Shown here one piece after another: positions 4,309-27,467 of a stretch of DNA of 64,000 bases. The first letter of the stretch is position 1. Each line of letters starts with the position of its first letter. The stretch spans positions 4,064,001-4,128,000 of the forward strand of contig OZ251539.1 of assembly GCA_965243135.1 (NCBI GenBank). The letters are read 5' to 3'. The translations under genes were made by a program, and so were the position numbers. The stretch is from Alphaproteobacteria bacterium (GTDB lineage Bacteria > Pseudomonadota > Alphaproteobacteria > MPNO01 > UBA830). The notes beneath the pieces were generated by a model that was given only the letters and a program-made list of their open reading frames with translations, was not told where the DNA came from and did not search any database.

Positions 4309-5166
4309 ATGTTCCGAAGGCTCGGTTCGCGTCAGGCGTTTCTGGTCGGCGCCGTGGTCTCCATGGCGCTCGCCGCCGGCGGCGCATGGCAGTTCGAGCG
4401 CTCGCCCCTGGCGCTGCTGAACGCGCTTCTGCCGGTCTGGATAGGAATCGCCGCCGTTTTCTGGGCGCTGTGGCGCATCGTTCTTCGACCGGCCGGAACG
4501 AACCTTCCGCCGCGGCCTCTCACCGCGGATTTCGAGCCTTTGCGGCTCGACATGCGCTATGCCGACCTGTCGGCTCTGCCCCTCGAAGCGCTGACATTCG
4601 TCGTGGCCGATACGGAGACCACGGGCCTGCGCCCGGACAGCGACCGGATCGTGCAGATCGGGGCCGTCCGCATCGAAAACGGCAAGCTTTTGCAAGGCGA
4701 TTCGTTCGAACGCCTCGTCAATCCCGGACGGCCGATTCCTGCCGCCTCGATCCGTTTCCACGGCATTACCGACGACATGGTCGCTCAAGCGCCCGCCATC
4801 GACGAAATCCTGCAGGAGTTCCTCGAGTATGCGGGAGACGCCGTGCTCGTCGGCCACAACATCGCCTTCGACATCGCTTTCATGAACCGGATCAGGCGGA
4901 TCGAGAACCCGATGCTGGACACCATGCTGCTTTCGATCGGCGCTTTCCGGAACAAGCAGGACCACACGCTCGACTCCCTGGCCAGGCAGTTCGACGAGGA
5001 AGTCCGGGATCGCCATACGGCTCTAGGCGACGCGGAACTGACCGCCCGCGTCTTTCTGCGGATGTGGCCGGACCTCCGGCGCAGCGGAGTGCGGCGGTTC
5101 GGCGACGCGCAGGATCTGTGCGCCGATTCCGCCCTGCGCGTCGGCGCCATGCGGCCTTACGCGTAG
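4309..5166 (+). CDS. membrane-anchored DEDDh (DnaQ-like) 3'-5' exonuclease
   Basis: two N-terminal hydrophobic segments; VADTETTG, VGHNIAFD, RHTALGDA motifs; GGGAGG RBS before ATG 4309. Confidence 0.85.
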   Translation: MFRRLGSRQAFLVGAVVSMALAAGGAWQFERSPLALLNALLPVWIGIAAVFWALWRIVLRPAGTNLPPRPLTADFEPLRLDMRYADLSALPLEALTFVVADTETTGLRPDSDRIVQIGAVRIENGKLLQGDSFERLVNPGRPIPAASIRFHGITDDMVAQAPAIDEILQEFLEYAGDAVLVGHNIAFDIAFMNRIRRIENPMLDTMLLSIGAFRNKQDHTLDSLARQFDEEVRDRHTALGDAELTARVFLRMWPDLRRSGVRRFGDAQDLCADSALRVGAMRPYA

Positions 5167-7470: not shown

Positions 7471-7600
7471 TCGATGGCAGTCGACGATCTCCGCCTCCCG
7501 CGCGTCGCCAGCGCGCCAGACGAAAACGCCGTTGCTCGTTGACGCGAACGCTACACCGCCCTCGGCGGCCGCGCCGGACCGAAGGCGGCAGCGCGGCCGC
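7471..7600 (-). pseudogene. higB: degenerate HigB/RelE-type toxin, 3' fragment
   Basis: GRCSVRVNEQR, then after a frameshift FVWRAGDAREAEIVDCH, matches the HigB C-terminus (SIRVNDQWRICFVW..GDA..VEIVDYH); stop codon appears mutated to CGA. Confidence 0.75.
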
Positions 7601-7785
7601 GGAACGATGGGCAATGCCGCTCGCGTCTTCCGCCGACGGCACGTTCTCTCGATGACGGAGCATATATCACACTCATATTGAGCTACGAGACTGTCGTGAA
7701 GTTTTCCGTCAATCATGCCGCTCGAGGTCTTGGCGGCTTCCGGCAAGATGGCGTCTCGAGATCGCTTCCCCGCCTCCGGACCGCG

Positions 7786-7875
7786 GCCGTCGCCGACCCG
7801 GACGGCGGAGGCCTTGACGGTATCATGGGCGAGGCGAGCGTAGCGGACGGTGGTCTGAACCTGGGCGCGGCCGAG
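7786..7875 (-). pseudogene. tyrosine integrase C-terminal remnant
   Basis: translates as LGRAQVQTTVRYARLAHDTVKASAVRVGDG, resembling the integrase box II LGH.QVQTT.RYAHL; the rest of the gene is absent. Confidence 0.7.
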
Positions 7876-8042
7876 GCAGCTTCATCGGCAGCCCGTCATC
7901 CTTCCGCGCTTAACTCTGCATCTCCGACGGCGCGATGCGCAGCGGGTTTCAACTTGACGTTCAGAGTCGTTCGTTTCCATGGAGTGGCCGGCGTTTGGTG
8001 GGCCGGAAGCCGACAGGGACATCCGTTCCTGCCTGCGCCGCC

Positions 8043-9017
8043 TCAAGGCGAAAGGCGCGGCGCGAACTCGCGTTTCCAGTCTTCGGTCGCCCGCATCAAT
8101 GCGGCGCGGACGCCCGGATCCATCGCCGAATGCCCTCCGTCCGGCACGACGACCATCTCCGAAGCCGGCCATGCGCGGTGCAGTTCGTGCGCCGTCGTCA
8201 TCGGACAGATCATGTCGTAGCGGCCTTGAACGATCTTGCAGCGCAGATGAACTATCCTGTCCAGATTGTCCATAATCTGGTTGTCGCTCATGAAGTTTCC
8301 GTTGACGAAATAATGCGCCTCGATCCGGGCGAGCGCATAGGCCATCTCTTCCTCGCCGAACGCGGCCACCGTTTCCGGGCTCGGCAACAGGGTCGAGCAC
8401 GCGCCCTCGTAACGGCTCCATGCGCGAGCCGCCGGCATATGCGTCGCGGGATCCGGATCGAGCAACCGGCGATGATAGTTCCGCAGGATGTCGCATCGCT
8501 CGCCCTCGCCGAGGCCCGACGCGAAATCGTTCCACGCTTCGGGAAAAACCGTCCGCAAACCGTAGAGATACCAGTCGATCTCTTGCGGCCGTCCGAGAAA
8601 AACGCCGCGCAACACCATGCCGAGACAACGCTCCGGATGCGCTTCGGCGAAGGCGAGCGCCAGAGTGCTGCCCCAGGAGCCGCCGAAGAGAAGGAACCGT
8701 TCGATGCCGAGAAAGTCGCCGAGCGCGGCGATGTCGCCGACGAGGTCTTCGGTCGTGTTGCCCTCCAGCGCGCCGCGGGGCGTCGACCGGCCGGCGCCGC
8801 GCTGATCGAAGATCACGATCCGATAGGCGTCCGGATCGAAAAACCGGCGATGGGTGGCGGTCGCTCCCGCGCCCGGTCCGCCATGCAAAAACAGGACCGG
8901 CGCGCCGTCCGGGCGGCCCGATTGCTCCCAGTACATTTCGTGAGGCCGGTCGAGTTCCAGCATCCCGGACGCGTACGGCTCGATCGGCGGATACAGATGT
9001 TCGCGCCGCGGACTCAC
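8043..9017 (-). CDS. pip: proline iminopeptidase
   Basis: LYPPIEPY, FLHGGPG, FDQRGAGRSTP, FGGSWGSTLAL, VQGRYD. Confidence 0.95.
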   Translation of the reverse strand: MSPRREHLYPPIEPYASGMLELDRPHEMYWEQSGRPDGAPVLFLHGGPGAGATATHRRFFDPDAYRIVIFDQRGAGRSTPRGALEGNTTEDLVGDIAALGDFLGIERFLLFGGSWGSTLALAFAEAHPERCLGMVLRGVFLGRPQEIDWYLYGLRTVFPEAWNDFASGLGEGERCDILRNYHRRLLDPDPATHMPAARAWSRYEGACSTLLPSPETVAAFGEEEMAYALARIEAHYFVNGNFMSDNQIMDNLDRIVHLRCKIVQGRYDMICPMTTAHELHRAWPASEMVVVPDGGHSAMDPGVRAALMRATEDWKREFAPRLSP

Positions 9018-9199
9018 GGCGACCCCTCGGACCGGCGCGGCGCCGCGCATTCGCGCTTTCGGTCGCGGCGACCGCCGCGCGGCGGACGGAGCGGCGCGCA
9101 GCGAGTCGGCGACTGGCGGAGAACGCCTGCGCCTTGCATACTTCCGGACGAACCTCCTGCCGCCGCGCCGGACGGCGGGAACGACGGAGCACTCGACGA

Positions 9200-10651
9200 A
9201 TGACGCGCGCCCTTCTCGCCGCAATCGTGTTTCTCCCGCTGCTCGGCGGATGCGCGACCGACCCCACCACGGGCGGCGCGATCTTCACGGGCGGGATGTC
9301 GCAACAGGAAGAAATCCGCGTCGGTCGCCTGCACCATCCTGCGATCCTGAAGAGGTACGGGGGCGAGTACGGCGCGCCCGAGCTCAATCGGTACGTCGAG
9401 AGCCTCGGCCAGTTTCTGGCCAGCACCGCCGAACGGCCCGATCTGAAGTTCAAGTTCACCGTGCTCAACTCGGAGGAGGTGAACGCCTTTGCGACTCCGG
9501 GCGGCTACGTCTACGTGACCCGCGGCCTCATGGCGCTGGCCGACGACGAGGCCCAACTCGCGGCCGTGCTGGCCCACGAAATCGGCCACATCGCCGCGCG
9601 GCATCATGCGCAGCGCCGCGGGCAAACGCTTGTCGCCAACATCGGCCTCGGCGCTCTGGGCGCTCTCGGAGGCGGGGCCGCGGCGGATCTGGGGCAATTC
9701 GCGGCGGTCGGCATCCTGCGAGGCTTTTCTCGAGAGCACGAGCGCGAAGCCGACAGCCTGAGCCTGCGCTACATGACGCGGGCGGGATTCGATCCGGGAG
9801 CGATGGCCGAGTTCCTGCGCAAGCTTCGGGCGAACGCGCGCTTGACCAAAACGCTCCGCGGCGAATCGCCGGATTCGGTCGACCGTTTCGATTACTTCGC
9901 CACACATCCGGCTCCGGCGGAACGCATGGAACGCGCGGCGGAGATGGCGCGCGCCGCCGCGGTGAGAGACCCGGTAACCGGGCGCGACGTGTATCTCTCG
10001 AAGATCTCCGGAATGCTCTACGGCGGAGATCCGGAACAGGGTTTCGTTCGAGGGCGCGATTTTCTGCACCCGAAATTGCGTTTCGCGTTCCGGGTGCCGC
10101 CGGGCTTCAGCGTGCTCAATTCCAGAACGGCCGTGGCCGCCTTCGGTCCGGACGGCGCGCGCCTCGTGTTCGATCGCGCGCCGAAACCGTCGGACGGCCC
10201 CATGACGTTCTATCTGCGCGAAGTGTGGGGCCGAAACCTGCGACTCGAAAACCTCGAAACGATCGAGGCGAACGGTCTGGAGGCGGCGACCGCGGCAGCG
10301 CGGCGGCGCGTCGAAGGAAAGGACTACGACCTGCGGCTCGTCGCCTATCGCGCCGCTCCCGGAACCATATACCGTTTTCTCTTCCTGATTCCGCCGGGCG
10401 CTCCGGGGTCGTTGTCCACGGAATTGCGCCGGACCACCTACAGCTTCCGCCTCCTGAGCGCCGCCGAGGCGGCGCGGCTCAGGCCGCACAGACTGCGCGT
10501 CGTCACGGTCGCGCCGGGCGAAACCGTCGAAAGCCTCGCGCGCAGCCTGCCCTATGCGGATCATCAGGTGGAACGGTTCGAGATACTGAACGGAGTCAGC
10601 CGCGCCGAACGCTTGCGGCCGGGCCGCAGGCTCAAGACGGTAAGCGAATAG
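9200..10651 (+). CDS. M48 family zinc metalloprotease lipoprotein with C-terminal LysM-like region
   Basis: lipobox LLGGC; NAFATPGG, LAHEIGH, E-EAD, THP motifs. Confidence 0.9.
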   Translation: MTRALLAAIVFLPLLGGCATDPTTGGAIFTGGMSQQEEIRVGRLHHPAILKRYGGEYGAPELNRYVESLGQFLASTAERPDLKFKFTVLNSEEVNAFATPGGYVYVTRGLMALADDEAQLAAVLAHEIGHIAARHHAQRRGQTLVANIGLGALGALGGGAAADLGQFAAVGILRGFSREHEREADSLSLRYMTRAGFDPGAMAEFLRKLRANARLTKTLRGESPDSVDRFDYFATHPAPAERMERAAEMARAAAVRDPVTGRDVYLSKISGMLYGGDPEQGFVRGRDFLHPKLRFAFRVPPGFSVLNSRTAVAAFGPDGARLVFDRAPKPSDGPMTFYLREVWGRNLRLENLETIEANGLEAATAAARRRVEGKDYDLRLVAYRAAPGTIYRFLFLIPPGAPGSLSTELRRTTYSFRLLSAAEAARLRPHRLRVVTVAPGETVESLARSLPYADHQVERFEILNGVSRAERLRPGRRLKTVSE

Positions 10652-10668
10652 AGGACGCCCTTCGCGCT

Positions 10669-11256
10669 TCAACTTGCGAGAACGAGCTCGATCTTCTCCG
10701 CCGCGGAAGGGTGATCCAGCTTTTCGACCAGCGCGAACTCGTTCACGAGGCGCTCCAGGGCGGCTTCGTACATCTGACGCTCGCTGTAGGATTGTTCGGG
10801 CTGGTCCGGCGCCCGGTAAAGATCGCGCACAACCTCGGCGACCTTGATCGGATCGCCGCTGTTGATCTTCGCGTCGTATTCCTGAGCCCGTCGGCTCCAC
10901 ATGGTTCGCTTGACGCGGGCGCGCCCCTTGAGCGTGGTCATCACCGATCGCATGGTCTCTCTGGAACTGATCTTGCGCAACCCGGAATCGACCACCTTTT
11001 CGACGGGCACCCGAAGGGTCATCTTTTCCGAGGCGAAGACGATCACGAACAGGTGGAGATCGAACCCGGCGACCTTCCGGCGCTCGATCCCCGTCACCTT
11101 TCCGACCCCGTGGGTGGGGTAGACGACATAGTCGCCCTTGGCGAACGGCAGCTTCTTCTTGCTGCGGACCAGCGTCTTTTCCGCGGTTCGCGCCTTCCTG
11201 GACCGCGCTTTCGCGCGAGCCGGCCGGGACGCCGGTCTGGTGGTGGGTGTAGCCAT
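10669..11256 (-). CDS. carD: CarD family transcriptional regulator
   Basis: VVYPTHGVG, MWSRRAQEY-AKINSGD, QSYSERQ-YEAAL. Confidence 0.95.
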   Translation of the reverse strand: MATPTTRPASRPARAKARSRKARTAEKTLVRSKKKLPFAKGDYVVYPTHGVGKVTGIERRKVAGFDLHLFVIVFASEKMTLRVPVEKVVDSGLRKISSRETMRSVMTTLKGRARVKRTMWSRRAQEYDAKINSGDPIKVAEVVRDLYRAPDQPEQSYSERQMYEAALERLVNEFALVEKLDHPSAAEKIELVLAS

Positions 11257-11299
11257 CGCGTCCTCTTCCTTGCCGGAGCTCGCGCGGTCGCGCCGGCCG

Positions 11300-11638
11300 T
11301 CAGGCGCCCTGGCCCGGTTTCTCGCTGAAGTGTTCCGCGAACTTGTTGGGCACCTCGCGCCAATCGTCCGCGTCGGGCGGGGACTCGCCCTTGCGGGTGA
11401 TGTTGGGCCAGACTTCGGCGTACTTCCGGTTCAGTTCGACGAACTCCTCGGAGGTATCGTCCGTATCCGGATGAATCGCTTCGACCGGGCATTCCGGCTC
11501 GCAGACGCCGCAATCGATGCATTCGTCCGGATGGATCACAAGCATGTTTTCGCCCTCGTAGAAGCAATCCACCGGGCAGACCTCCACGCAGTCCATGAAT
11601 TTGCACTTGATGCACGACTCGTTGACGATGTACGTCAT
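11300..11638 (-). CDS. fdxA: 7Fe ferredoxin
   Basis: [43 protein letters not shown]. Confidence 0.95.
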
Positions 11639-12016
11639 TCCACTCTCCGTCTCGCACTGTCAGGCGTTGTTCCCGAACGCCGGCCGCCGACGACAGGCCG
11701 ACCTGCTTTCCGGCAAACTAGTCTTTTTTGCGCAAGTGACCAACAGTTTTGTGCATCGAGGCGTTCGAGCCTCGCCGCCTTGCGCCGACCCGCTTCCGTC
11801 CGGCGCCCCGCGGTTCGCTCCGCCCGGCTCTCCGACGGCCCGAAGCGAGGCTCGCCGCCGCGCTCTCCGGCCGCGACCGGATCCCGTCGCCCTGCGCTGC
11901 CGTTCGCCGCGCCGGCGGCTTCCGGGCGGACGGCGGTTCCGGACCGGAAGATCCCGAGTCTTCCGCGCCGGGCGGGAAGAATATCCCGGGAAACCGTCCG
12001 CGCTTCGGAGCGCCGC

Positions 12017-16248: not shown

Positions 16249-17424
16249 CTACGCCGCATCGAACGCCGAAAGCGATCCCAGCGCATTCAGGACCAGATTG
16301 GCCGCGGTTTCGATGTCTTCGTCCGTAGTGAAGCGGCCGAAGCTGAACCGAATGGAAGAATCGCATTGCAACGCCGCGAGGCCCAAGGCCCGGAGCACGT
16401 GCGACGGTTCGGGAATTCCGGTGGCGCAGGCCGCGCCGGTGGCCGCCGCGAGCCGAGGCTGAAGCGCGCCAAGAATGTCCCGGGCGTCGAAACCGTCGAA
16501 CCTGACGTTGGCGTTGCCTGGATGTCGGCTTTCGCCGCTCGCGCCGTTGAGGACGGCGGAGGGATGTCCGTTCCGCAGGCGCGCCACGAACGAATCCCTC
16601 CGCCGTTCCGTACGGGATCGTTCCTTCGACGCCTCCGGACTTCGCGCGAGGTCGGCCGCCGCCGCCATACCGACGCACAAAGGAACCGGAAGCGTTCCGG
16701 AGCGCAATCCCTCCTGTTGCCCGCCTCCGTAGATCAACGGCTCCACGCGATCATGCAAATCGCGCCGAATGCGCAAAGCGCCGATGCCCTGCGGGCCGTA
16801 CATTTTGTGTCCCGAGAGACTCACGAGGTCGGCGTGACCGGCGAGGCCGCTTACGTCCACCGCGGACGGCGCCTGCGCGGCATCGCAATGAAGAGGAATG
16901 CCGCGCTGCGCGAGCAGAGCGGATATCCTCGGCACGTCCTGTATCGTCCCTACTTCGTTGTTGACCGCCATTACGGAAACCACCAGCACGTCGTCATCGA
17001 GCATCCGCTCCAGGCAGCCGAGATCCAAAAACCCTTCGCGGTCCACCGGTATCGTTTCGAACGAAAATCCCTCGCGCTCCGAAAGCGAACGGGCGGCCGC
17101 AAGCACGCATTTGTGCTCGATCGCCGATGCCAGGATGCGCTTGCGTCCCGCGGGCGCCCGCCGCGCTAGGCCAAGCAGCGCCAGGTTGTTGGATTCCGTG
17201 GCCCCGGACGTGAAGACGATCTCGTCGGCGTCGGCGCCGATCAACGCCGCGACCGCTTCCGCCGCTTCCCGCACCGCCTTGTCCGCTTGCCAGCCGACCG
17301 CGTGATCGATCGAATGCGGGTTGCCGAACGATTCGCTCCAATACGGCACCATCCTGTCCGCGACGCGCGGGTCGAGAGGCGTGGTTGCCTGATAATCGGC
17401 GTATATCGTTACGTTTTCGGCCAC
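16249..17424 (-). CDS. cysteine desulfurase (IscS/DndA/SspA-like)
   Basis: YADYQATTP, FGNPHS, FTSGATESNN, HCDAAQ, SGHKMYGPQG (PLP lysine), ATGAACATG (catalytic Cys); start codon uncertain. Confidence 0.9.
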   Translation of the reverse strand: MAENVTIYADYQATTPLDPRVADRMVPYWSESFGNPHSIDHAVGWQADKAVREAAEAVAALIGADADEIVFTSGATESNNLALLGLARRAPAGRKRILASAIEHKCVLAAARSLSEREGFSFETIPVDREGFLDLGCLERMLDDDVLVVSVMAVNNEVGTIQDVPRISALLAQRGIPLHCDAAQAPSAVDVSGLAGHADLVSLSGHKMYGPQGIGALRIRRDLHDRVEPLIYGGGQQEGLRSGTLPVPLCVGMAAAADLARSPEASKERSRTERRRDSFVARLRNGHPSAVLNGASGESRHPGNANVRFDGFDARDILGALQPRLAAATGAACATGIPEPSHVLRALGLAALQCDSSIRFSFGRFTTDEDIETAANLVLNALGSLSAFDAA

Positions 17425-17520
17425 GGCAGGGGCGCATTCCGATTGCCGACGGGGTTTTTGACGATACCCTGCCCATGGGCTATTGTCGAACTGGAGGGAT
17501 CGTCCAGAGCGGGGATGTAG

Positions 17521-18444
17521 ATGCTGAGGGGGCCACTCCATGCCGACGGCTACCGTCCGCAACTTTCCGGCCACGAAACGTTCCCTCTGCGGTACGGATG
17601 GCTCAAGAAGGCGGTCGATGCGGCCTCGGCGGATTCGCGCGACAACCGCGACAAGTCGATTTTCCTTTCGGACGACGCGATCGCCCGCCTGGGCGTCGGC
17701 AAGAACATGGTCGCGTCAATGCGCCATTGGGCGACGGCGGCGGGCATGATCGAAGAAAGACGCGGCAAGATCGCGACCACGCCCCTCGGAAAGCGGATAT
17801 TCGGTCCCCGCGGGCTGGATCCGTACATGGAGAATCCCGCCACGTGCTGGCTCGTTCACTGGCGGCTTTGCAGCAACGACCGCAAAACGACCTGGTTCTG
17901 GGCGTTCAATCACTATCCTGCGGCATCGTTCGAGCGAGACGCTCTGGTCCAGGGAATAGAAAAACTCTCCAGAGACCGAGGCTGGCGCAGGACGGCGATT
18001 TCCACCATCAGAAGCGACGTCGCCTGCTTCGTGCGGACCTACGCGTCCTTGCCGTCTTCCAGGAAGGACAGCTACGAAGAGACTCTGGAGTCGCCGCTGG
18101 CCGAGCTCGGGCTCGTTCGGCCGATCGGAAAACGGGACGGATTTCGGTTCGTGCGCGGACGGAAACCGTCTCTTGGAAGCGGAGTCTTTTGCTTCGCACT
18201 CACCGAATCCTGGCCCTCGGAGTCGCAGACCCTTGCCTTCGAAACGCTGGCTCACGAGCCCGGCTTCCCCGGGCGGGTGTTCCAACTTGACGAGAACGAC
18301 CTGGCTGACCGGCTTTCCGATATCGAGGAAACGAGCGGCGGCCGCTACGCTTGGTCGGAAACGGCCGGCCTGAAGCAGGTGCTTCGCAAGCGTCCGGTGA
18401 GCGAAGCGGAAGCGCTTCTCTTCCTCGAAGCGGACTATACGTAA
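17521..18444 (+). CDS. DUF4007 family protein (SspB-like)
   Basis: SGHETFPLRYGWLKK, LGVGKNMVASMRHW, DPYMENPAT-WL-HW, ESPLAELGL, WSETAGLKQ. Confidence 0.85.
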   Translation: MLRGPLHADGYRPQLSGHETFPLRYGWLKKAVDAASADSRDNRDKSIFLSDDAIARLGVGKNMVASMRHWATAAGMIEERRGKIATTPLGKRIFGPRGLDPYMENPATCWLVHWRLCSNDRKTTWFWAFNHYPAASFERDALVQGIEKLSRDRGWRRTAISTIRSDVACFVRTYASLPSSRKDSYEETLESPLAELGLVRPIGKRDGFRFVRGRKPSLGSGVFCFALTESWPSESQTLAFETLAHEPGFPGRVFQLDENDLADRLSDIEETSGGRYAWSETAGLKQVLRKRPVSEAEALLFLEADYT

Positions 18445-21400
18445 TGCCACTCGCGGATCGGGTTCAGGTTTCACGGCGCTTCCAGCGGGCGGTTCGGATC
18501 GATACCGATTTCGGGGACGCTCTCGAAGGATACGTCTGTCCCCGATCGTCAACCAACGTTCTTGAAAACATGGCGCACCAGGTTTCCGAAAGCGGACAAG
18601 GCGCCTTCACCTGGACCGGGCCTTACGGCAGCGGCAAATCGAGTCTCGCGGTCGCCTTCGGCGCCGTCCTCGGCGGCAAAATCCAGCCGGAGCCGATATT
18701 CGGCCGGGAAACGTCCGCGATCCTGAAGCATGCCTTTCCCCCCAGACCGGTTCTTCCGGTCGTAGGCCGGAGGGAGCGCCCGGCAACGGTGATCGGCGAG
18801 GCGCTCTCGAATCTGACGACCGGCCGGAAGCGGCGAAGCTGGACGGAAAAGCAGGCGCTCGACGCGATCGGAGACATTTCGACGCGCGGCCCCGGCCTTC
18901 TCGTGCTCATCGACGAAATGGGCAAATTCCTGGAAGCGGCGGCGCGCGACGGATCGGACATCCATATTTTTCAACAGTTGGCCGAAATCGCGTCGAGAAG
19001 CGGCGGACGTTTGATCCTCGTCGGCATTCTGCATCAGGCGTTCGAGGAATACGCGCATCGGCTGTCGAGAGAAATGCGAAGCGAATGGTCGAAAATCCAG
19101 GGCCGTTTCATGGACCTCGCCGTCAATGCCGGCGGCGAAGAGCAGATCGACCTGCTCGGGCGCGCGATCGAAAGCGACCGCACGGCGGAACCTGCCGGCG
19201 CGCTGGCCGAAGGCGTCGCTCGCCTCTCCCGAAACTCCACGTCTCCGCATCTGGCCAAGACGCTGGAAGACTGCTGGCCGTTGCACCCAATCGTCGCATG
19301 CCTGCTCGGCCCCATATCGCGGCGGCGTTTCGGCCAGAACCAGCGCAGCGTATTCGGCTTTCTGAATTCCGCGGAACCCGAGGGATTTCAGGACTTCATT
19401 CTCAACGCGGGCGACGACGACCTCTACGGTCCCGATCGTCTGTGGGACTACCTCCGGATCAATCTCGAATCCGCCATACTCGCCTCGCCGGACGGACATC
19501 GCTGGGCGTTGGGGGTGGACGCCCTGGGCCGCTGCGAGGCGTTGGGGGGAGAAGCGCTGCATCTTCGTTTGCTCAAAACGGTCGCGATCGCGGATCTGGT
19601 CAAGGATCGCTCCAGACTGCCCCCGAGCGAGGAACTGTTGAAATACGCCGCATACGATTGCGAACGGCGGAAAATCGACGGCGCCTTGGAGCAGTTGCAA
19701 CAATGGTCTCTGATCGTCTTCCGGAAGTTCGCGGACGCTTATTCGCTCTTCGAGGGCAGCGACTTCGATATAGAGCGCGCAGTGGAGCAGGCGTCCGAGA
19801 GCGAGGTCGACTTCGAAGCGCTCAATTCGATGGCCCGCCTTCAACCGATCGTGGCCAAGCGGCACTATCACGAGACAGGCGCGCTTCGTTGGTTCGACGT
19901 ACGCATCGTCTCTTTGGCGCGATCCGAGGAGGAAGCCGTTGGCTATCAGCCGCGCAACGGCGCCATCGGAGCCTTCTTTCTCGCGATCCCGACGCAAGGC
20001 GAAGCCGAAGACGAGGCAAATGCGATTTGCCGCCGGATCGCCAAACGCAGCCGGGATATGGCGATCGTCGTCGGACTGTCGCGGCACAGCTGGAGCGTCC
20101 CCGCCTCGGCGATCGAATTATTGGCGCTTGAACGGGTGCGCGACGAGTCCGTCGAACTTCAAGGCGACCGCGTAGGTCGGATCGAGGTTCAAGCGCGCAT
20201 AGCAGGGCTGCAGGCACAGCTCGAAACCGAGCTGGAACGCGCCTTCGACCGCGCCTCCTGGTTCCACGGAGACGCCGGAGCAAGAACGCTCAGGCAGGCG
20301 GATCTCAACAGCTTCGCGTCCGATCTCGCCGAAGATATGTTTCCCTGCGCACCGCATCTTCCTAACGAGCTTCTCAACCGGACGAAGCCATCGAGCAGCG
20401 CAAGCGCCGCTCGCAACTCTCTACTGAAGAGAATGGTTCAAAAGGAAGGAGAGGAACGTCTGGGCATCGACGGTTATCCTGCCGAGCTCGGGCTTTTTGC
20501 ATCCCTGCTGGAGGCGACGAAACTGTATCGTCCGGCTGGGGATGCATGGCAATTTACCCCCCCCCCCCCCCCCAGAAAATGACGATTCTCATAACCTAAG
20601 CCTCGCGTGGCACGCGGTTGAATCCTATTTGAAATTAGAAACTCGCCGCGCAGTATCCCTAAGCGAGATATATTCAGTTTGGCGGCGTCCGCCTTTCGGA
20701 ATCAAAGACGGGCTGTTGCCCGTCCTGGCGGTGGCGTTCATTCTGTCTCGGCGAAAAATATTGGCGCTCTATCGCGAAGGGATATTCCAACCCCGCCTAT
20801 CGGAGCTCGACGTAGACTATATCCTCGGGGATCCGGCCGACATTCAATTGCGCTGGATGACGCTGTCCGAAACGTCGCGTCGTCTTCTGTCCGACATGGC
20901 CGAGGTCGTGCGCGAACTCGACAGCGAAAATGCGCTCAACGATCTTGAGCCTATCGACGTCGCCAGAGGTCTGGTGACGATCTACGATCGGCTGCCGCCT
21001 TGGGTCGGACGTACCCAGCGCCTTTCGCCCAACGCGAAACACATCAGAACGTTGCTGAAGAAGGCGAACGATCCCAACCGGCTTATCTTCGACGACATTC
21101 CAAGCGTATTGAGCGACGGCAAGAACGGTTCCGTCGAACGCGTCGCCAGCCGGGTCGGAGAAGGCCTGACGGAACTGCAAAAAGCATTTCCGGCGATGCT
21201 GTCCAGGATGAGAGAAATTTTGCTGGCGGAATTGGAGGTTCCGTACGCTTCGCCGCCGATGCTGGCGGAACTTCGGGCGCGTGCGGAGAACGCGCTCGAC
21301 CTTGCGGGGGATCATCGATTGCGGGCCTTTATCGTCCGTCTTTCGCGTTTCGAGGGGAAAGACGAAGATATGGAGAGTCTCGCGAGCATGGCCATCAACA

Positions 21401-21762
21401 AGCCGCCGCGCGACTGGGTCGACCCCGATATCGACCGCGCCCTCATCGCGCTGGCCGAAATGGCCCAACGTTTCGTGCGCCTGGAAGCGTTCGCCCATGT
21501 CAATGGGCGCAAGGACAAGAGGCACGCGATGGCCATGGTCGTCGGTCTGGACGGGCGCCCGGCGACGCTGCATGCCGAATTCGACGTCACCGATCTCGAC
21601 CGGCCCGGCGTCGAGTCGCTGCTCGATCGCATGGCATCGACATTAAAGGACAGCGGCGAGGAACGGCGCAACGTGATCCTGGCGGCGCTGTCCGAATTAA
21701 GCGCTCAATACCTGCAAACTTCCGGAAACGCCCATCGGCCGATGGAGCGGACCCTCACATGA
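18444..21762 (+). CDS. large P-loop ATPase (SspC-like), split by a +1 frameshift at a C17 tract
   Basis: RRFQRAVRIDTD, Walker A GPYGSGKS, Walker B LIDEMGK, WPLHP, FGQNQRSVFGFL; upstream ORF stops at 20582 just after C17; the downstream frame continues (PPFGIKDGLLPV) to 21762; removing one C gives 1105 aa. Confidence 0.8.
20557..20573 (+). repeat. C17 homopolymer tract (candidate contingency repeat)
   Basis: 17 consecutive C, directly counted; the only such long run I saw in the window. Confidence 0.9.
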
Positions 21763-22589
21763 CGGAATGGCATGTCCTGGGGCTGTCGGGCGGGCGCGAC
21801 AGCGCCGCTCTCGCCGTCCATATGCGCGAGACGCATCCGGAGATCGACATCGAGTACTTTTTCACGGACACCGGAAAGGAGTTGCCGGAGGTCTACGAGT
21901 TCCTGGTGAAGCTGGAAGGCTTTCTGGGCAAACCGATCGTCCGCCTCAATCCCGACCGCGACTTCGATTTCTGGCTGAAGCGCTACAAGAACTTCCTGCC
22001 GTCGCCCCAATCCCGATGGTGCACGCGGCAACTGAAGCTTCGGCCTTTCGAGAACTGGATCAGATCGGCTCTGGATAACGGGACGAAGGTTTTCAGTTAC
22101 GTCGCCATTCGGGCGGACGAAGAATACAGGGAAGGTTACGCCGCGACGCACGCGGGGCTAAGCGTCCGGCTCCCCCTGAAAGAGGCAGGCGTCGATAAGT
22201 CCGGGGTATTGGAAATACTGGAAGGGGCCGGTCTGGGCTTGCCGGAGTACTACCGCTGGCGCACTCGCAGCGGGTGCACGTTCTGCTTCTTTCAACAAAA
22301 AATCGAGTGGGTTCGACTAATGGAACAGCACCCCGAGTATTTCGAAGAAGCCAAGCGCTACGAGAAAACCGCCGTCGAAAACGGTTCTCCCTTCACCTGG
22401 AGTCAGGGGGAATCGCTCAATGACTTGTCTCAACCCCAGCGGATCGCGCAAATCAAAGAAAATCACCAACGCCGGGTCGAAAGAATGCGCGACCGAATTC
22501 AGCTGAATCCGCTTCGGCCGGATAGAGAGCCAGTAGATATGGATGAAATCTACGGCAAGGCGAAGGCTTGCTTGGCGTGCCACAAATGA
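21759..22589 (+). CDS. PAPS reductase family protein (SspD/DndC-like)
   Basis: PP-loop LSGGRDS, FTDTGKELPE, RWCTRQLK, RSGCTFCFFQ, C-terminal CLACHK; ATGA overlap with the ATPase stop. Confidence 0.88.
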   Translation: MTEWHVLGLSGGRDSAALAVHMRETHPEIDIEYFFTDTGKELPEVYEFLVKLEGFLGKPIVRLNPDRDFDFWLKRYKNFLPSPQSRWCTRQLKLRPFENWIRSALDNGTKVFSYVAIRADEEYREGYAATHAGLSVRLPLKEAGVDKSGVLEILEGAGLGLPEYYRWRTRSGCTFCFFQQKIEWVRLMEQHPEYFEEAKRYEKTAVENGSPFTWSQGESLNDLSQPQRIAQIKENHQRRVERMRDRIQLNPLRPDREPVDMDEIYGKAKACLACHK

Positions 22590-24199
22590 TGTCCGCTAGT
22601 TCAACACAACCCGGGCTTTCGCCGGAACGGATTTTCGAAGCCCTCGACGATGATCAGGCAACGCGCATTCTGCCCGGTGGCGCGTTCAAACTGATCCGTG
22701 AACTCGCCCCGGACCGGATCTCGGGGCAGAGGCGCGCCGAAACGTTGGGGAACATGTTGTCTCTCGAATCGGCCGTGGACGATCCAGATCGAAGGAGCGT
22801 TCTTTTGGATGCCGTACCCAACTTCAAGATAGCCGAGCTCGAAGAGAGAACCGAAACAGATATCGTGACGCTGCGGCGAAAACTGGATTTGGAGAAGTCG
22901 GTTCGACGGGCGCTTCTGGGTTTCTTCGGCGCTCCCACGTTCGACGAAGTGCCTGCCGACTCCCGCGGCGATGCGATGGCGGTGGAACCGGCGCGGGGCT
23001 TGTTCCCCCACCAGAAGCGCGTCGCGAGCGCCGTGGAGAAACATCTGCATTCCGGAGAAGGACGCGCCATGCTGCACCTTCCCACGGGTGTCGGTAAAAC
23101 GCGGGTCGCCATGAGCATCGTCGCCTCGCACCTTCGGACTCGCCCGGGGCTGGTACTGTGGCTGGCTGCCACTCGGGAACTTCTGGAGCAGGCAGCGGAA
23201 GAGTTTCGGGCAATGTGGCAGGTCGTTGGAGACCGCCCGATCGATTGCCTTTGCTTCTGGTCGCACCACGATCCGCCCATCGAAGAAGCAGAGTCCGGTA
23301 TCGTCATCGCTGGCTTGGCTAAGCTCCACTCTTACGGAAGAGAGAGGAAGCGGCTGTGGAATCTCGGCAATCGAACCTCGATGATGGTGTTCGACGAAGC
23401 TCACCAAGCTGTCGCCGAGACCTATCAGGACCTGGTCGAAACGATCGTCACCCGAAATCCTAGAACGCCGCTTCTCGGACTCAGCGCAACGCCGGGTCGC
23501 ACATGGGACAACCCCGCGATCGACGCGGCTGTCGCAACATTGTTCCAGGAAAACAAGGTTACGATGGATTTCTTGGGGAAAAACCCGATCCGGCACCTCA
23601 CGGATGAAGGCTACCTCGCCGAAATCGATTTCTCGCTATTGAACGTCAAGCCAGGATTGCGACTTTCGCCCGACGATCTTGCGGAGGTATCAGCCTCGCT
23701 GGATATCCCGGCCGGCGTCGCCGTCAGGCTAGGCGAGGACGAGCAGCGAAATCTCCGCATTGTTCAGAGATTGCTGCAACTGTCGGATGCGCATCGGCGC
23801 ATTCTGGTTTTCGCCGCCTCGGTTGCCAACGCGACGCTTCTAGCAGGTATATGCAAAGGCATTGGGCTTGAAGCCGACGCCGTCACCGGCAAGACAGCCC
23901 CGGCATTGCGCGAGCATGTGATTCAGCGGTTCAAGCGGTCGAGCGGTCCTCACAGGGTGTTGATAAATTACGGCGTGCTGACGACAGGGTTCGACGCCCC
24001 TGCAGTAAGTGCTGTGCTCATCGCAAGGCCGACAAAGTCTTTAGTTCTATACAGCCAGATGGTGGGACGGGCAATCCGCGGACCATTGGCTGGAGGGACG
24101 GAGCGCTGCGAAATCGTAACGGTAATCGATACGAACCTGCCGGGCTTCGGTGACGTGGCCGAGGCATTCACGAATTGGGAAGATGTCTGGAGTTGCTGA
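22586..24199 (+). CDS. DEAH-box SF2 helicase (ResIII-like)
   Basis: LPTGVGKT, FDEAH, GLSATP, TTGFDAP, QMVGRAIRG; ATGA overlap with the upstream gene. Confidence 0.9.
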   Translation: MMSASSTQPGLSPERIFEALDDDQATRILPGGAFKLIRELAPDRISGQRRAETLGNMLSLESAVDDPDRRSVLLDAVPNFKIAELEERTETDIVTLRRKLDLEKSVRRALLGFFGAPTFDEVPADSRGDAMAVEPARGLFPHQKRVASAVEKHLHSGEGRAMLHLPTGVGKTRVAMSIVASHLRTRPGLVLWLAATRELLEQAAEEFRAMWQVVGDRPIDCLCFWSHHDPPIEEAESGIVIAGLAKLHSYGRERKRLWNLGNRTSMMVFDEAHQAVAETYQDLVETIVTRNPRTPLLGLSATPGRTWDNPAIDAAVATLFQENKVTMDFLGKNPIRHLTDEGYLAEIDFSLLNVKPGLRLSPDDLAEVSASLDIPAGVAVRLGEDEQRNLRIVQRLLQLSDAHRRILVFAASVANATLLAGICKGIGLEADAVTGKTAPALREHVIQRFKRSSGPHRVLINYGVLTTGFDAPAVSAVLIARPTKSLVLYSQMVGRAIRGPLAGGTERCEIVTVIDTNLPGFGDVAEAFTNWEDVWSC

Positions 24200-24200
24200 A

Positions 24201-26075
24201 ATGGACCAACAACAGGAATTTGATTTTTCGATCGTCTCGGCCAAGCTCACGATCGAGGCCATGCGCGATAGCGGATACAAGGATACGGATCATGCGATTA
24301 CGGAACTTATCGATAATTCCGTAGAAGCGAAAGCTGACACCATCGAGATCATCGCTGTCGAGACTCCTCCAGAGCACGGCCAATTCTTTGCACGCTCCAA
24401 AGTGACTGAAATCGCCGTGGCTGACAATGGTCATGGAATGGATGAAGTTACGCTTAGGCGAGCGTTGAAGTTCGGCGATGGGACGAAACTTGATCGCATG
24501 AATCGTGGAATAGGAAGATTCGGTATCGGCCTACCACAATCCTCGATTTCTCAGTGCAAGCGCGTTGACGTCTGGACATGGCAAAATGGGCATGACAATG
24601 CCATCCGTTGTTATCTCGATATCGATGAAATCAAAACTCAGAATCGCTCGATCGTGCCGGACGCATTCCCGGATGCAGTTCCTGAACGGTGGCGATCAAT
24701 CGCGGGGAGCACATCCGAATCTACAGGAACGTTGGTCGTATGGAGTAAACTGGATCGCGTCAAATGGAGTGGCGGACAAAAAACCCTTGAGCGGACCGCA
24801 GAGCATTGTGGCCGGGTTTACAGAAAATTTCTGGACGGTCAATCCAATAAAATCTCTATTGATCTTGTGCTTGCCTTCGACGCAGACGGTACATTGGAAC
24901 AGACTTCATCACAGCAGTGCTATCCTAACGATCCTCTTTATCTTATGAATAATACCTCTACACCTAAGCCTTTCGATAATATCCCCATGTTCGAAAAATT
25001 TAATGAACGCAGATGGGAGGTGCCGGCGGCTGGTGTGCAAGGCAATCTTCGTGGCGAAATTAAAGTTGTATGTTCGCTTGCTCGTCTTGACGCAATTAAT
25101 CAAACTAAATCTACAATCACATGGCCATCTACGCACTATAATCCCGGAAGTTCGCCGTGGGGCAAACACGCGAATCGCAACAAAGGAGTTTCTATCGTCC
25201 GTGCCGGTAGGGAGTTGGAAATGAGCCTCGCTTGGGTAAATAACTACGAACCAGAGGAGCGGTGGTGGTCAGTAGAAGTCGAATTCGATCCATTACTCGA
25301 CGAATTATTTGGGGTAGTAAACAACAAGCAGCACGCTCACGCTTTCGTCAATGGCGCTGGTTTCGATTATACAGCACATATTTTTGATGGTGAAACACAA
25401 GGTGCTTTTCTAGAGAGGCTGCAAGAAACTGAAGACGATAGTCGTTATTTAATTCCGGTTTGGCAATGGATAGATAATCAGATTAAAGCGATGCGAAATG
25501 AGTACGATAAGAGGAAGGAAGGTACACGAACACGTCACCCACATCCGCAGACGGGTGAAGAAGTCGAAGACGTCGCGACAAAGATCATCAAAGAACAAGC
25601 AGAAAAAGGAGAAAAAGGCGACAGCGACAACGCTCCCGAAACGAGCCTTGAAGAAAAGGTTAAAATGATAACCAACTCGGCAAAGCAGAAGCGGGTAGAC
25701 GAACCAACAGCGGAGGAATGGGCAAGAGAAGTTATCGAAAGCGGGCGACGGGTGTTAATGAAAGCTGTTACATTAGGGCACAAAAATGCATTCTTCACCG
25801 TCGAATCTGTGAACGACATTATCGAAGTCTGGCTCAATCACGAACACCCAGTTTATCATAATCTTATAGAAGGATTGTCTAAAGATTTTGAAGGTGCAAC
25901 GCAGGACGAGCTGGTAAAGCGGCTGAAAAATGCATCGTTTACCCTCAATATGATGTTGATAGCTTGGGCTCGGTACGAAGATAAAACTCCGAACAGACTC
26001 GAATGCACTCTTGAGGACATGAGAATGGATTGGGGTAGAGAAGCTCGAAAATTCCTAGAGTCCATCGAATCATGA
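24201..26075 (+). CDS. MORC-like GHKL (HATPase) ATPase
   Basis: MRDSGYK...ELIDNS, IAVADNGHGM, GIGRFGIGL; no histidine kinase H-box; visibly AT-richer than the flanks. Confidence 0.8.
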   Translation: MDQQQEFDFSIVSAKLTIEAMRDSGYKDTDHAITELIDNSVEAKADTIEIIAVETPPEHGQFFARSKVTEIAVADNGHGMDEVTLRRALKFGDGTKLDRMNRGIGRFGIGLPQSSISQCKRVDVWTWQNGHDNAIRCYLDIDEIKTQNRSIVPDAFPDAVPERWRSIAGSTSESTGTLVVWSKLDRVKWSGGQKTLERTAEHCGRVYRKFLDGQSNKISIDLVLAFDADGTLEQTSSQQCYPNDPLYLMNNTSTPKPFDNIPMFEKFNERRWEVPAAGVQGNLRGEIKVVCSLARLDAINQTKSTITWPSTHYNPGSSPWGKHANRNKGVSIVRAGRELEMSLAWVNNYEPEERWWSVEVEFDPLLDELFGVVNNKQHAHAFVNGAGFDYTAHIFDGETQGAFLERLQETEDDSRYLIPVWQWIDNQIKAMRNEYDKRKEGTRTRHPHPQTGEEVEDVATKIIKEQAEKGEKGDSDNAPETSLEEKVKMITNSAKQKRVDEPTAEEWAREVIESGRRVLMKAVTLGHKNAFFTVESVNDIIEVWLNHEHPVYHNLIEGLSKDFEGATQDELVKRLKNASFTLNMMLIAWARYEDKTPNRLECTLEDMRMDWGREARKFLESIES

Positions 26076-27028
26076 TCCTGCTTGGAGAGCAGGTTTCATC
26101 TCTTCTCGAATCTGCGAAGAAAAGCGCATTGATTGTTGCACCGTTCATGCGTTCGGAAGCGCTGTCTAGACTACTGAATCATGTTCCGAACGATGTTGAA
26201 ACCACGATTGTTACGCGGTGGAGATTGGCGGATTTGCTTTCGGGCGCGTCGGATCTTGGCGTCTACGATCTAGCCGACGCAATGAATGCCGATCTGTTAT
26301 TGCGGTCCAATTTGCATGCCAAGCTGTTCGCCGCGGATAACAAATGTTTGGCGGGATCGGCCAACGTTACTTTTTCGGCGCTCGGGTGGCTGAAACCAGC
26401 CAACCTCGAATTGCTGATTTCTGTGCGTCGAGACGACGCGCTTATAGTCGAGTTTGAACGAGAACTTAAAGCCGGAGCGGTTCGAGCGACCGTGGCGCAA
26501 AGGGACCAACTCCAGAATTCTCTCGATCAGCTCCAGAATTCGACCTATGTGATTTCACCGGCGGAGGACGGCACACGAGCAACAGGCTTGCTGAACTCGT
26601 ACTGGATCCCCCGAATCAAAAACCCGGAAGATCTCTACGCGGTCTACAGTGGCAATGCCGACGCGGGCCAACCGCTCTTGCGAATCATGCGAGATGAACT
26701 GGCCGGGATCGGGGCACCGTCGGGACTGGATGAAGAAGGATTCAGGGCGTGGGTGGCTGGAACGATTACCCAAACACCGTTCTTTGCTGCGCTCACGAAG
26801 CACTTCGAAGGACACGGCGAGGTGACCGAGGCCGAGGTCGCGAGCATCTTGCAGGAATTTGGTGAGGAGGCGCACAACGCCCGAGAAATGCTGGAAATTG
26901 TCGGGCGTTGGTTTACATATTTCTTGCGGGAGCCCCACGAGACAGCGAGAGATACCGTCAAGCTGATCAAGGCTAAACGTTTCGGGTCCGCTTGGGTGCA
27001 ACGAGGGAATTCGGCTGCATCCGACTGA
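26072..27028 (+). CDS. phospholipase D-superfamily nuclease-like protein
   Basis: IVAPF, LHAKLF...AGSANVT...NLEL: a single HxK/SxN PLD motif; ATGA overlap. Confidence 0.8.
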   Translation: MILLGEQVSSLLESAKKSALIVAPFMRSEALSRLLNHVPNDVETTIVTRWRLADLLSGASDLGVYDLADAMNADLLLRSNLHAKLFAADNKCLAGSANVTFSALGWLKPANLELLISVRRDDALIVEFERELKAGAVRATVAQRDQLQNSLDQLQNSTYVISPAEDGTRATGLLNSYWIPRIKNPEDLYAVYSGNADAGQPLLRIMRDELAGIGAPSGLDEEGFRAWVAGTITQTPFFAALTKHFEGHGEVTEAEVASILQEFGEEAHNAREMLEIVGRWFTYFLREPHETARDTVKLIKAKRFGSAWVQRGNSAASD

Positions 27029-27328
27029 ATGCACTTATCGATCGCTGCCGCACTCCGAGGAATTTGGTGCGCGGGTACCGGAAAAATGGCCGGCAACTGC
27101 GTCCGCCGCGTCCGGGACCCTACGGAGCGTTTCGGAAGGTCGCAGTCGCCGCGCGCCCATTCTCAAGGGCGCCATAGCTTGGTTCGACGGGCCGTTCCGC
27201 AGTTCGCGCGATCTCTTGGGCCTTGGCGATACGCAATCCGTCGTCGAGGATTTCATCGATATTCTCGGGAGGCTTCCGCGACCGCCAACCGCATTCTCTT
27301 CCGGATCGCAAGTTTCCCGACAAGCGCC

Positions 27329-27358
27329 TTGACACCTTCCAATCCGCTTTACGACAAT
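27329..27358 (+). promoter_or_regulatory. candidate sigma70 promoter for clpS
   Basis: TTGACA-N18-GACAAT. Confidence 0.45.
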
Positions 27359-27467
27359 GAACCGTCGCGGGAGGAGGAGCGGACAGGCATGCAGCCGTCG
27401 CGCCGTGCTGCCGCGCCTCCGACGCAAGCGGATTCGGACGAGCGATGATTCCAGGCTGGAGGTCCGA

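Follow-up and report, generated by a model that had tools for sequence, protein, structure and literature searches.

A 17-nucleotide cytosine tract in sspC as a probable phase-variable switch of DNA phosphorothioation in an alphaproteobacterium

A run of 17 cytosines (C17) interrupts the reading frame of sspC, the gene for the ATPase of an SspABCD single-strand DNA phosphorothioation system, in a stretch of 64,000 nucleotides from an alphaproteobacterium (assembly GCA_965243135.1, contig OZ251539.1, positions 4,064,001 to 4,128,000), which is called the window throughout. This feature is real and not an artefact, and the explanation which we regard as probable is that sspC, and thus phosphorothioate (PT) modification by SspABCD, is subject to slipped-strand phase variation and that the sampled populations are in the OFF state. 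According to this model C17 would be a hypermutable simple-sequence repeat, in which slipped-strand mispairing during replication would add or remove C's. With 13, 16 or 19 C's full-length SspC would be made and PT modification would be ON; with other lengths translation would end 2 or 7 codons past the tract and the system would be OFF, as it would be in the sequenced population. To our knowledge all bacteria studied so far show instability of long G/C runs. An ON/OFF switch by slippage was already put forward in the original prediction, made from the letters of the window, and it is supported here by a genome with 55 long G/C tracts, by length differences at the site, by ON and OFF alleles in a second lineage and by purifying selection behind the frameshift. 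The switching rate, the effect on PT and the polarity on downstream genes we infer.

The sspC tract and the tracts of the host genome

The argument turns on three features of the window:

18444..20582, + strand: N-terminal piece of sspC, 712 aa, matching positions 1-728 of the PADLOC SspC model PDLC02780, with GPYGSGKS and LIDEMG, ending ...FTPPPPPRK and a stop
20557..20573, + strand: C17 homopolymer, the proposed slipped-strand switch, encoding a poly-Pro loop where homologues have a variable coil
20575..21762, + strand: C-terminal piece of sspC in the +1 frame, 395 codons from tract to stop, matching positions 728-1044 of PDLC02780, E 4e-101

The homopolymer, read directly from the window, lies within the coding sequence of sspC and is the single match to C17 in the window, and none of 100 dinucleotide-preserving shuffles contained any. 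With this and with the bimodal distribution of run lengths in the genome (see below), it is a long repeat within an open reading frame (ORF) that lies far beyond chance. The upstream frame, which opens with the ATG at 18444, reads ...WQFTPPPPPRK and ends at the stop codon 20580-20582, and the +1 frame reads ...PPPPPPENDDSHNL... and is open to the stop at 21760-21762. Apart from the junction the two halves, 712 aa and then 395 aa in the +1 frame, are without stops. When the length of the tract was varied, a full-length sspC ORF of 1104, 1105 and 1106 aa was obtained at C13, C16 and C19, respectively, and the product was 712 aa at C17 and 717 or 718 aa at C15 or C18. The original prediction had described the tract, the upstream frame stopping at 20582 with the remainder of the protein in the +1 frame, the 1105-aa ORF at C16 and the otherwise stop-free halves, and all these points were confirmed by translation of both frames and by the length scan.

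The identity of the protein, which had been called SspC-like, is borne out by PDLC02780 (1045 positions). The N-terminal piece matches positions 1-728 with an E-value of 5.4e-268 and the C-terminal piece continues from 728, so that nothing is missing at the junction and the break is situated exactly at the tract; the two pieces together make up the full-length SspC profile. A search of the whole genome returned the same two pieces and no second sspC. The N-terminal piece carries the P-loop NTPase motifs GPYGSGKS and LIDEMGKF, and the columns that correspond to them show no variation across 62 homologues. Alignment of 62 full-length homologues gives a mean entropy of 2.06 bits for the ten residues where the tract lies, compared with 0.96 bits for the whole protein, and the site is bracketed by an invariant F and an invariant L. 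In an AF2 model (mean pLDDT 76, pTM 0.40) it forms the coil that joins a beta-hairpin and a helix, and no solved structure related to SspC by sequence was found. The run would replace a variable surface loop, in which 4 to 6 consecutive Pro should do no harm. CCC accounts for 42 of the 146 Pro codons across the operon, and the tract uses it five times.

The sspC tract is one of many in its genome. The host genome (6.10 Mb, 65% G+C) contains 5418, 798, 80, 14 and 7 C/G runs of 5, 6, 7, 8 and 9 nt, respectively, and then 55 runs of 10-21 nt (genome G000, loci L014-L068, each with its tract at position 5001), and its A/T runs are never longer than 10 nt. We took 10 kb around each of the 55 tracts and listed 142 open frames, of which 41 with G+C richer at the first than at the third codon position were dropped as likely antisense shadows; the remaining 101 were scanned with Pfam and 35 of these also with PADLOC. 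Twelve of the 55 tracts are located within DNA modification or restriction genes, namely six Type ISP-like genes, two Type III mod genes (with G18 and C21 tracts), two Type IIG-like genes, one DUF1156/HmaB methylase and sspC. In three of the twelve, a pair of ORFs meets at the tract within a single PADLOC model (972/980, 1403/1427 and 340/368), two further of these genes are split by ORF geometry only, and four read through the tract in frame at full length. Among the Type ISP-like genes, L038 is intact and the ORF of L016 is in frame at the tract but has 580 aa only. Long C/G runs occur in relatives too, and 19 of 41 genomes contain at least one run of 12. Counted as overlapping matches, 12-nt runs number 198 in the host; two genomes of its genus have 448 and 61, and two others have 0 and 1. 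This distribution of tracts is the pattern of an organism which uses contingency loci.

Tracts are also found near genes for surface proteins: six lie upstream of autotransporter genes and one upstream of the gene for a LapA-like adhesin that exceeds 5000 aa. They sit in conserved leaders (L067 4990-5025; L052 and L061 about 4990-5030; L028, L062 and L064 about 4970-5020). The leader of L067, TTGCAT-ac-G15-TAATGT, reads as a -35/-10 pair with a 17-nt spacer, and those of L052 and L061, TTGCAT-ttc(c)-G17-TACGGT, have spacers of 20-21 nt, which suggests that the surface-protein genes may be phase-varied through the length of the promoter spacer. Six other loci (L023, L024, L025, L056, L059 and L066, at about 0.41-0.48, 5.40-5.43 and 5.76 Mb) share the same ORF geometry at the tract, with frames opening 91 and 29-38 nt before it. 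The frames of these six gave no match in Pfam or PADLOC, and one of the loci adjoins an ArdC-like anti-restriction gene. They are probably copies of a repeated mobile element which carries its own tract.

Length variants, selection and competing explanations

Within the lineage of the window we compared run data in the form of assembled contigs, not reads, over positions 19500-21600. A contig of 25.6 kb from run X8 (depth 30) shows no difference from the window and has C17, and a contig of 27.9 kb from run X9 of the same sample (depth 6.7) has one extra C, i.e. C18; these two runs may include the source of the assembly and are not fully independent of it. Six further contigs of the lineage, with 95-96% protein identity, were found in the protein collection. 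The N-terminal fragments of the related contigs end with ...QFAPPPPRKRRFS and ...QFPPPPPQKTTILIT, and the C-terminal fragments begin with MHGNLPPPPPEN... in four contigs, with MHGNLPPPPPPEN... in one and with MAISPPPPPEN... in one. Two of the contigs have calls in both frames, each of them poly-Pro over the same DNA, which requires a C homopolymer there. Four contigs have a deduced distance of 15 nt from TTT to AGAAAA, one has 18 nt, like the window, and one has 16 nt; distances of 14, 17 or 20 nt would be in frame. The variable tract length expected of such a switch by the original prediction is present on the level of contigs and protein strings, as C17 and C18 in the two runs and as three distances in the six contigs. 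Contigs of run X1 end at 20452 and restart at 20560, leaving the tract without cover, and an exact pattern of the left flank followed by at least 10 C gave no matches in metagenome contigs.

It had been pointed out from the beginning that the homopolymer could be an error of assembly or sequencing, the real tract being in frame and the gene intact. Long homopolymers are indeed error-prone, and two runs of one sample differ at this one. However, both C17 and C18 are out of frame, six more independent contigs, which come from other assemblies, are all out of frame with four of them agreeing on the length, and on the two contigs with poly-Pro called in both frames these frames overlap on the run. 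Because none of the seven contigs of the lineage is in frame and the site shows three lengths, we consider such an error highly unlikely.

The downstream half of sspC is under purifying selection. The X1 contig, which comes from a sponge-metagenome run and is 98-99% identical to the window, differs from it at 30 listed places in 26 codons within 20560-21600. Read in the +1 frame, 20 of these codons have synonymous and six have non-synonymous changes, which, with 251 and 775 sites of the two kinds, respectively, gives a dN/dS of about 0.1; the binomial probability of at most six non-synonymous codons among 26 under neutrality is 2.7e-8. This excess of synonymous changes indicates that the downstream half was translated in its own frame for most of its divergence from the X1 contig. 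The same numbers bear on the idea that sspC is dead, i.e. a frameshift pseudogene in which the length of the tract drifts and has no function. This idea would account for seven out-of-frame contigs out of seven, and four or five other defence genes of the host are also split at tracts. A dN/dS of about 0.1 behind the frameshift speaks against it, as does the finding that neither half has further stops or indels, in the host or in the proteins of its relatives, and that the matches of sspA, sspB, sspD and the three downstream genes extend over the whole of their models; a dead gene is in our opinion improbable. As a separate observation, X1 and the window differ at 4 places over 19500-20452 and at 30 over 20560-21600 (about 0.4% vs 2.9%), and this step may be a recombination boundary near the tract.

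Just 5' of the tract, at 20541-20548, the sequence GATGCATGG provides each of the two alternative frames with an ATG that precedes the run by 11-15 nt, so that the C-terminal piece has an available start codon whichever way the frame is lost. One could accordingly imagine a split but working gene, in which two polypeptides assemble and the C-terminal one is started from the ATG just upstream of the run. Gene callers place the start of five C-terminal fragments at MHGNL and of one at MAIS, and the purifying selection on the downstream half agrees with such a product as well. Against it, a G-rich stretch is situated 0-4 nt before the ATGs, which is poor spacing for a ribosome-binding site, the OFF alleles of the second lineage (see below) are without such a start and their C-terminal ORFs begin about 45 residues later, and a consistent natural split at this site occurs in none of the shorter proteins among the listed homologues (one of the two lists covering proteins of up to 737 residues). 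We hold a working split to be very improbable.

A run of at least four Pro is present in two of the 120 listed homologues of the N-terminal piece, in both at the site of the tract, and both proteins end just after it. One of the homologues, P0054, is 59% identical to the protein of the window, has the Pro run at the same site and is truncated, its 733 aa ending with a stop just past the run. Two other members of its cluster differ in this respect: P0254 is full-length (1132 aa) and reads ...RFAPPPPPPPHNRNL..., and P0252 has 755 aa and continues in another frame after the run. The second lineage consequently holds one ON allele (P0254) and two OFF alleles (P0054 and P0252), and none of the seven contigs in the lineage of the window is ON. 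Tract-less homologues are 62% identical to the protein of the window and 67% to P0254, and the Pro run probably arose twice, as judged from these identities.

A further case was found outside these two lineages. In a Caldilineaceae metagenome-assembled genome (MAG; L136, OY760647.1) a G16 run at 1198-1213 encodes poly-Gly inside sspC at about residue 400, and the gene is split into 395 aa and the rest; this is a long-read MAG, and the exact length of the G run is uncertain. Since the scan of species genomes for TTYR plus C13, in which this locus was seen, returned at least 120 loci, the match in sspC is an example and not a frequency. The candidate switch point recurs in two lineages at the same loop and in one Chloroflexota MAG at another site. 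No such run was present in sspC of three relatives from the same order or in 16 sspC genes from metagenomes; the closest relatives of P0254 in metagenome contigs are only 43-55% identical, and in all 16 the G/C runs are shorter than 8. Whether orthologues lack the tract was one of the points the original prediction had left for checking. In one low-G+C metagenome contig (L192, 2686-2695) an in-frame A10 run (K-K-N) lies inside sspC.

Some of these observations weigh against phase variation. The difference between C17 and C18 is possibly a homopolymer error, the depth of X9 being only 6.7 and contigs, not reads, having been compared, and the tract lengths of the relatives were deduced from protein strings and not from DNA. 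Long contigs of run X10 end at 20542 and restart at 20560, and its unitigs of 43-47 nt, which show C15 and C16, reach 13 and 15 letters beyond the tract on either side, short of our bridging rule of 31 flanking letters, and are a weak hint only. No in-frame consensus was seen among the seven contigs of the lineage, where a full-length relative of at least 95% identity would have headed the homologue list. Six of the seven share one out-of-frame class (length mod 3 = 2), which a +1 shift would rescue, a hint that the arrangement is stable and does not switch freely.

A stable arrangement of this kind could be recoding. The out-of-frame allele would then be the normal one, and a +1 ribosomal frameshift on CCC-C, or slippage of RNA polymerase, would give a low steady level of full-length SspC; the poly-Pro stall and AGA as the next in-frame codon would favour the ribosomal route, and the length of the tract would tune the amount of protein instead of acting as a switch. 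It is known that CCC-C sites and hungry codons favour +1 shifts. The 15 or 18 nt of six of the seven lineage contigs represent the sole class in which a +1 shift enters the C-terminal frame, the in-frame consensus is absent from the contigs sampled, and the downstream half is under purifying selection though all sampled alleles are out of frame. On the other hand, one contig of the lineage (16 nt) and X9 (C18) belong to the other out-of-frame class, the second lineage has an in-frame allele beside two out-of-frame alleles in different frames, and one frame is only weakly in excess, with a probability of about 0.06 for at least six out of seven. Recoding is a rival to be reckoned with but for us rather unlikely, and slipped-strand phase variation of sspC remains the probable explanation.

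The ssp locus and its operon

The other genes of the locus, and the tract-containing gene's neighbours on both sides, are as follows:

16249..17574, - strand: sspA-like cysteine desulfurase (class V aminotransferase); Pfam Aminotran_5, E 5.1e-75, residues 57-422; listed from the first possible start, the real start being probably further in
17521..18444, + strand: sspB (DUF4007); Pfam DUF4007, E 7.7e-88; PADLOC SspB, E 1.5e-101, positions 2-280 of 282
21759..22589, + strand: sspD (PAPS-reductase-like ATP pyrophosphatase); PADLOC SspD, E 4.6e-133, positions 2-277 of 277; Pfam PAPS_reduct
22586..24199, + strand: SF2 helicase; Pfam ResIII, DEAD, Helicase_C
24201..26075, + strand: GHKL-type ATPase; Pfam HATPase_c_3, E 3.5e-22; weak MzaB match
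26072..27028, + strand: PLD-family nuclease-like protein; Pfam PLDc_2, E 1e-4, below the curated cut-off; PADLOC ZacB 8.6e-12, DrmC 1.9e-6
27029..27448, + strand: ORF of 139 aa with 0 family matches; its membership in the operon is uncertain
22586-27448 of the window: helicase/GHKL/PLD gene set after sspD; also L191, about 7600-11900, and, as helicase + GHKL, L202 and L203, about 8200-11260

This is an SspABCD module, with sspB and sspD adjoining sspC and the Aminotran_5 gene upstream, transcribed divergently from sspB. From sspB on, the packing of the genes resembles a translationally coupled operon. The stop of sspB and the start of sspC overlap at 18444 (TAATG), sspC and sspD as well as sspD and the helicase overlap by ATGA, the ATG of the GHKL gene follows the helicase stop after 2 nt (TGAAATG), the GHKL and PLD genes again overlap by ATGA, and the PLD gene and the 139-aa ORF abut directly (TGAATG). 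Judging from these overlapping and abutting codons, a premature stop in sspC may also lower the expression of sspD and of the presumed effector genes. A polarity which protects the OFF cell, as suggested in the original prediction, would fit the overlapping stop and start codons, the danger of the OFF state depending on the effector.

The region is probably an acquired island, because G+C drops locally from 0.65-0.70 to 0.48-0.62 over 18-28 kb; it is situated between a Suv3-like helicase gene and clpS. No PADLOC match to SspE, SspF, SspG or SspH at E <= 1e-3 was obtained among the 11 ORFs scanned, and the genes after sspD match PbeA, MzaB, ZacB and DrmC only weakly. The order helicase-GHKL-PLD after sspD recurs in a genome of another family (G053), with 43, 41 and 33% identity, and the helicase and GHKL genes after sspD recur in the metagenome contigs L202 and L203, where the helicase is 42% identical. 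The helicase-GHKL-PLD set may be an undescribed effector module linked to PT.

Relation to known systems and significance

In the Pgl system a G tract lies in the methyltransferase gene pglX and the mark is base methylation. The sspC locus is similar to Pgl/BREX of Streptomyces coelicolor in that a G/C homopolymer in a gene of modification-based phage defence would likewise switch the system, and it differs in that the tract is in the ATPase of a backbone-sulfur system and not in a methyltransferase. SspC is itself a sequence relative of BrxC/PglY (PADLOC BrxC, E 2.3e-80). Pgl is called phase-variable in titles among the references of PMC12839542. In phasevarions, repeat slippage in a modification gene gives rise to subpopulations with and without the epigenetic mark, as stated in the available parts of PMC12707154 and PMC6435447. 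Those of Type III mod and Type I systems are like the proposed sspC switch in having the slippage within the modification gene itself; they involve methylation and mostly host-adapted pathogens, whereas with sspC the mark would be phosphorothioate and the bacterium is environmental.

For PT itself, the accessible part of a 2018 FEMS review (PMC6435447) describes partial PT as reminiscent of phase variation and states that simple repeats were not seen in dnd genes or their promoters. In the literature searched, most of it not as full text, we met with no description of dnd or ssp genes switched by a repeat, and with none of a homopolymer tract in SspABCD-SspE or SspABCD-SspFGH in the portions of the literature examined. 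The locus resembles these two systems in its set of sspA, sspB, sspC and sspD with strong model matches, and is unlike them in its downstream genes, which here are an SF2 helicase, a GHKL ATPase and a PLD protein. According to the sections at hand, SspF is described by a Walker A motif only and SspH by an FtsK-like C-terminus (PMC8092258, section 6), and SspE needs PT in order to act while SspFGH is toxic to cells lacking PT (PMC8092258, PMC11676413).

The sspC switch is most likely a new form of a known kind of regulation, i.e. a contingency switch of a PT system. A bolder proposal, which we make tentatively and which may well go too far, is that it would be the first repeat-driven switch of a PT epigenome (a "PT phasevarion"), that sspC would be a recurrent switch point which evolved at least three times, and that through coupling of the operon the OFF state would also silence the helicase-GHKL-PLD restriction module and so avoid self-attack.

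PT marks cover a part of their target sites and differ between cells. A repeat in sspC with ON and OFF alleles in several lineages would, if true, be a direct genetic route to this heterogeneity, and it would extend the control by contingency loci from methylation systems and BREX to modification of the DNA backbone. Phase variation has so far been studied mainly in pathogens; the host is environmental, and its relatives occur in sponge metagenomes. With its 55 tracts, the genome of the host is also a resource, a large defence "phasome" in an environmental bacterium.

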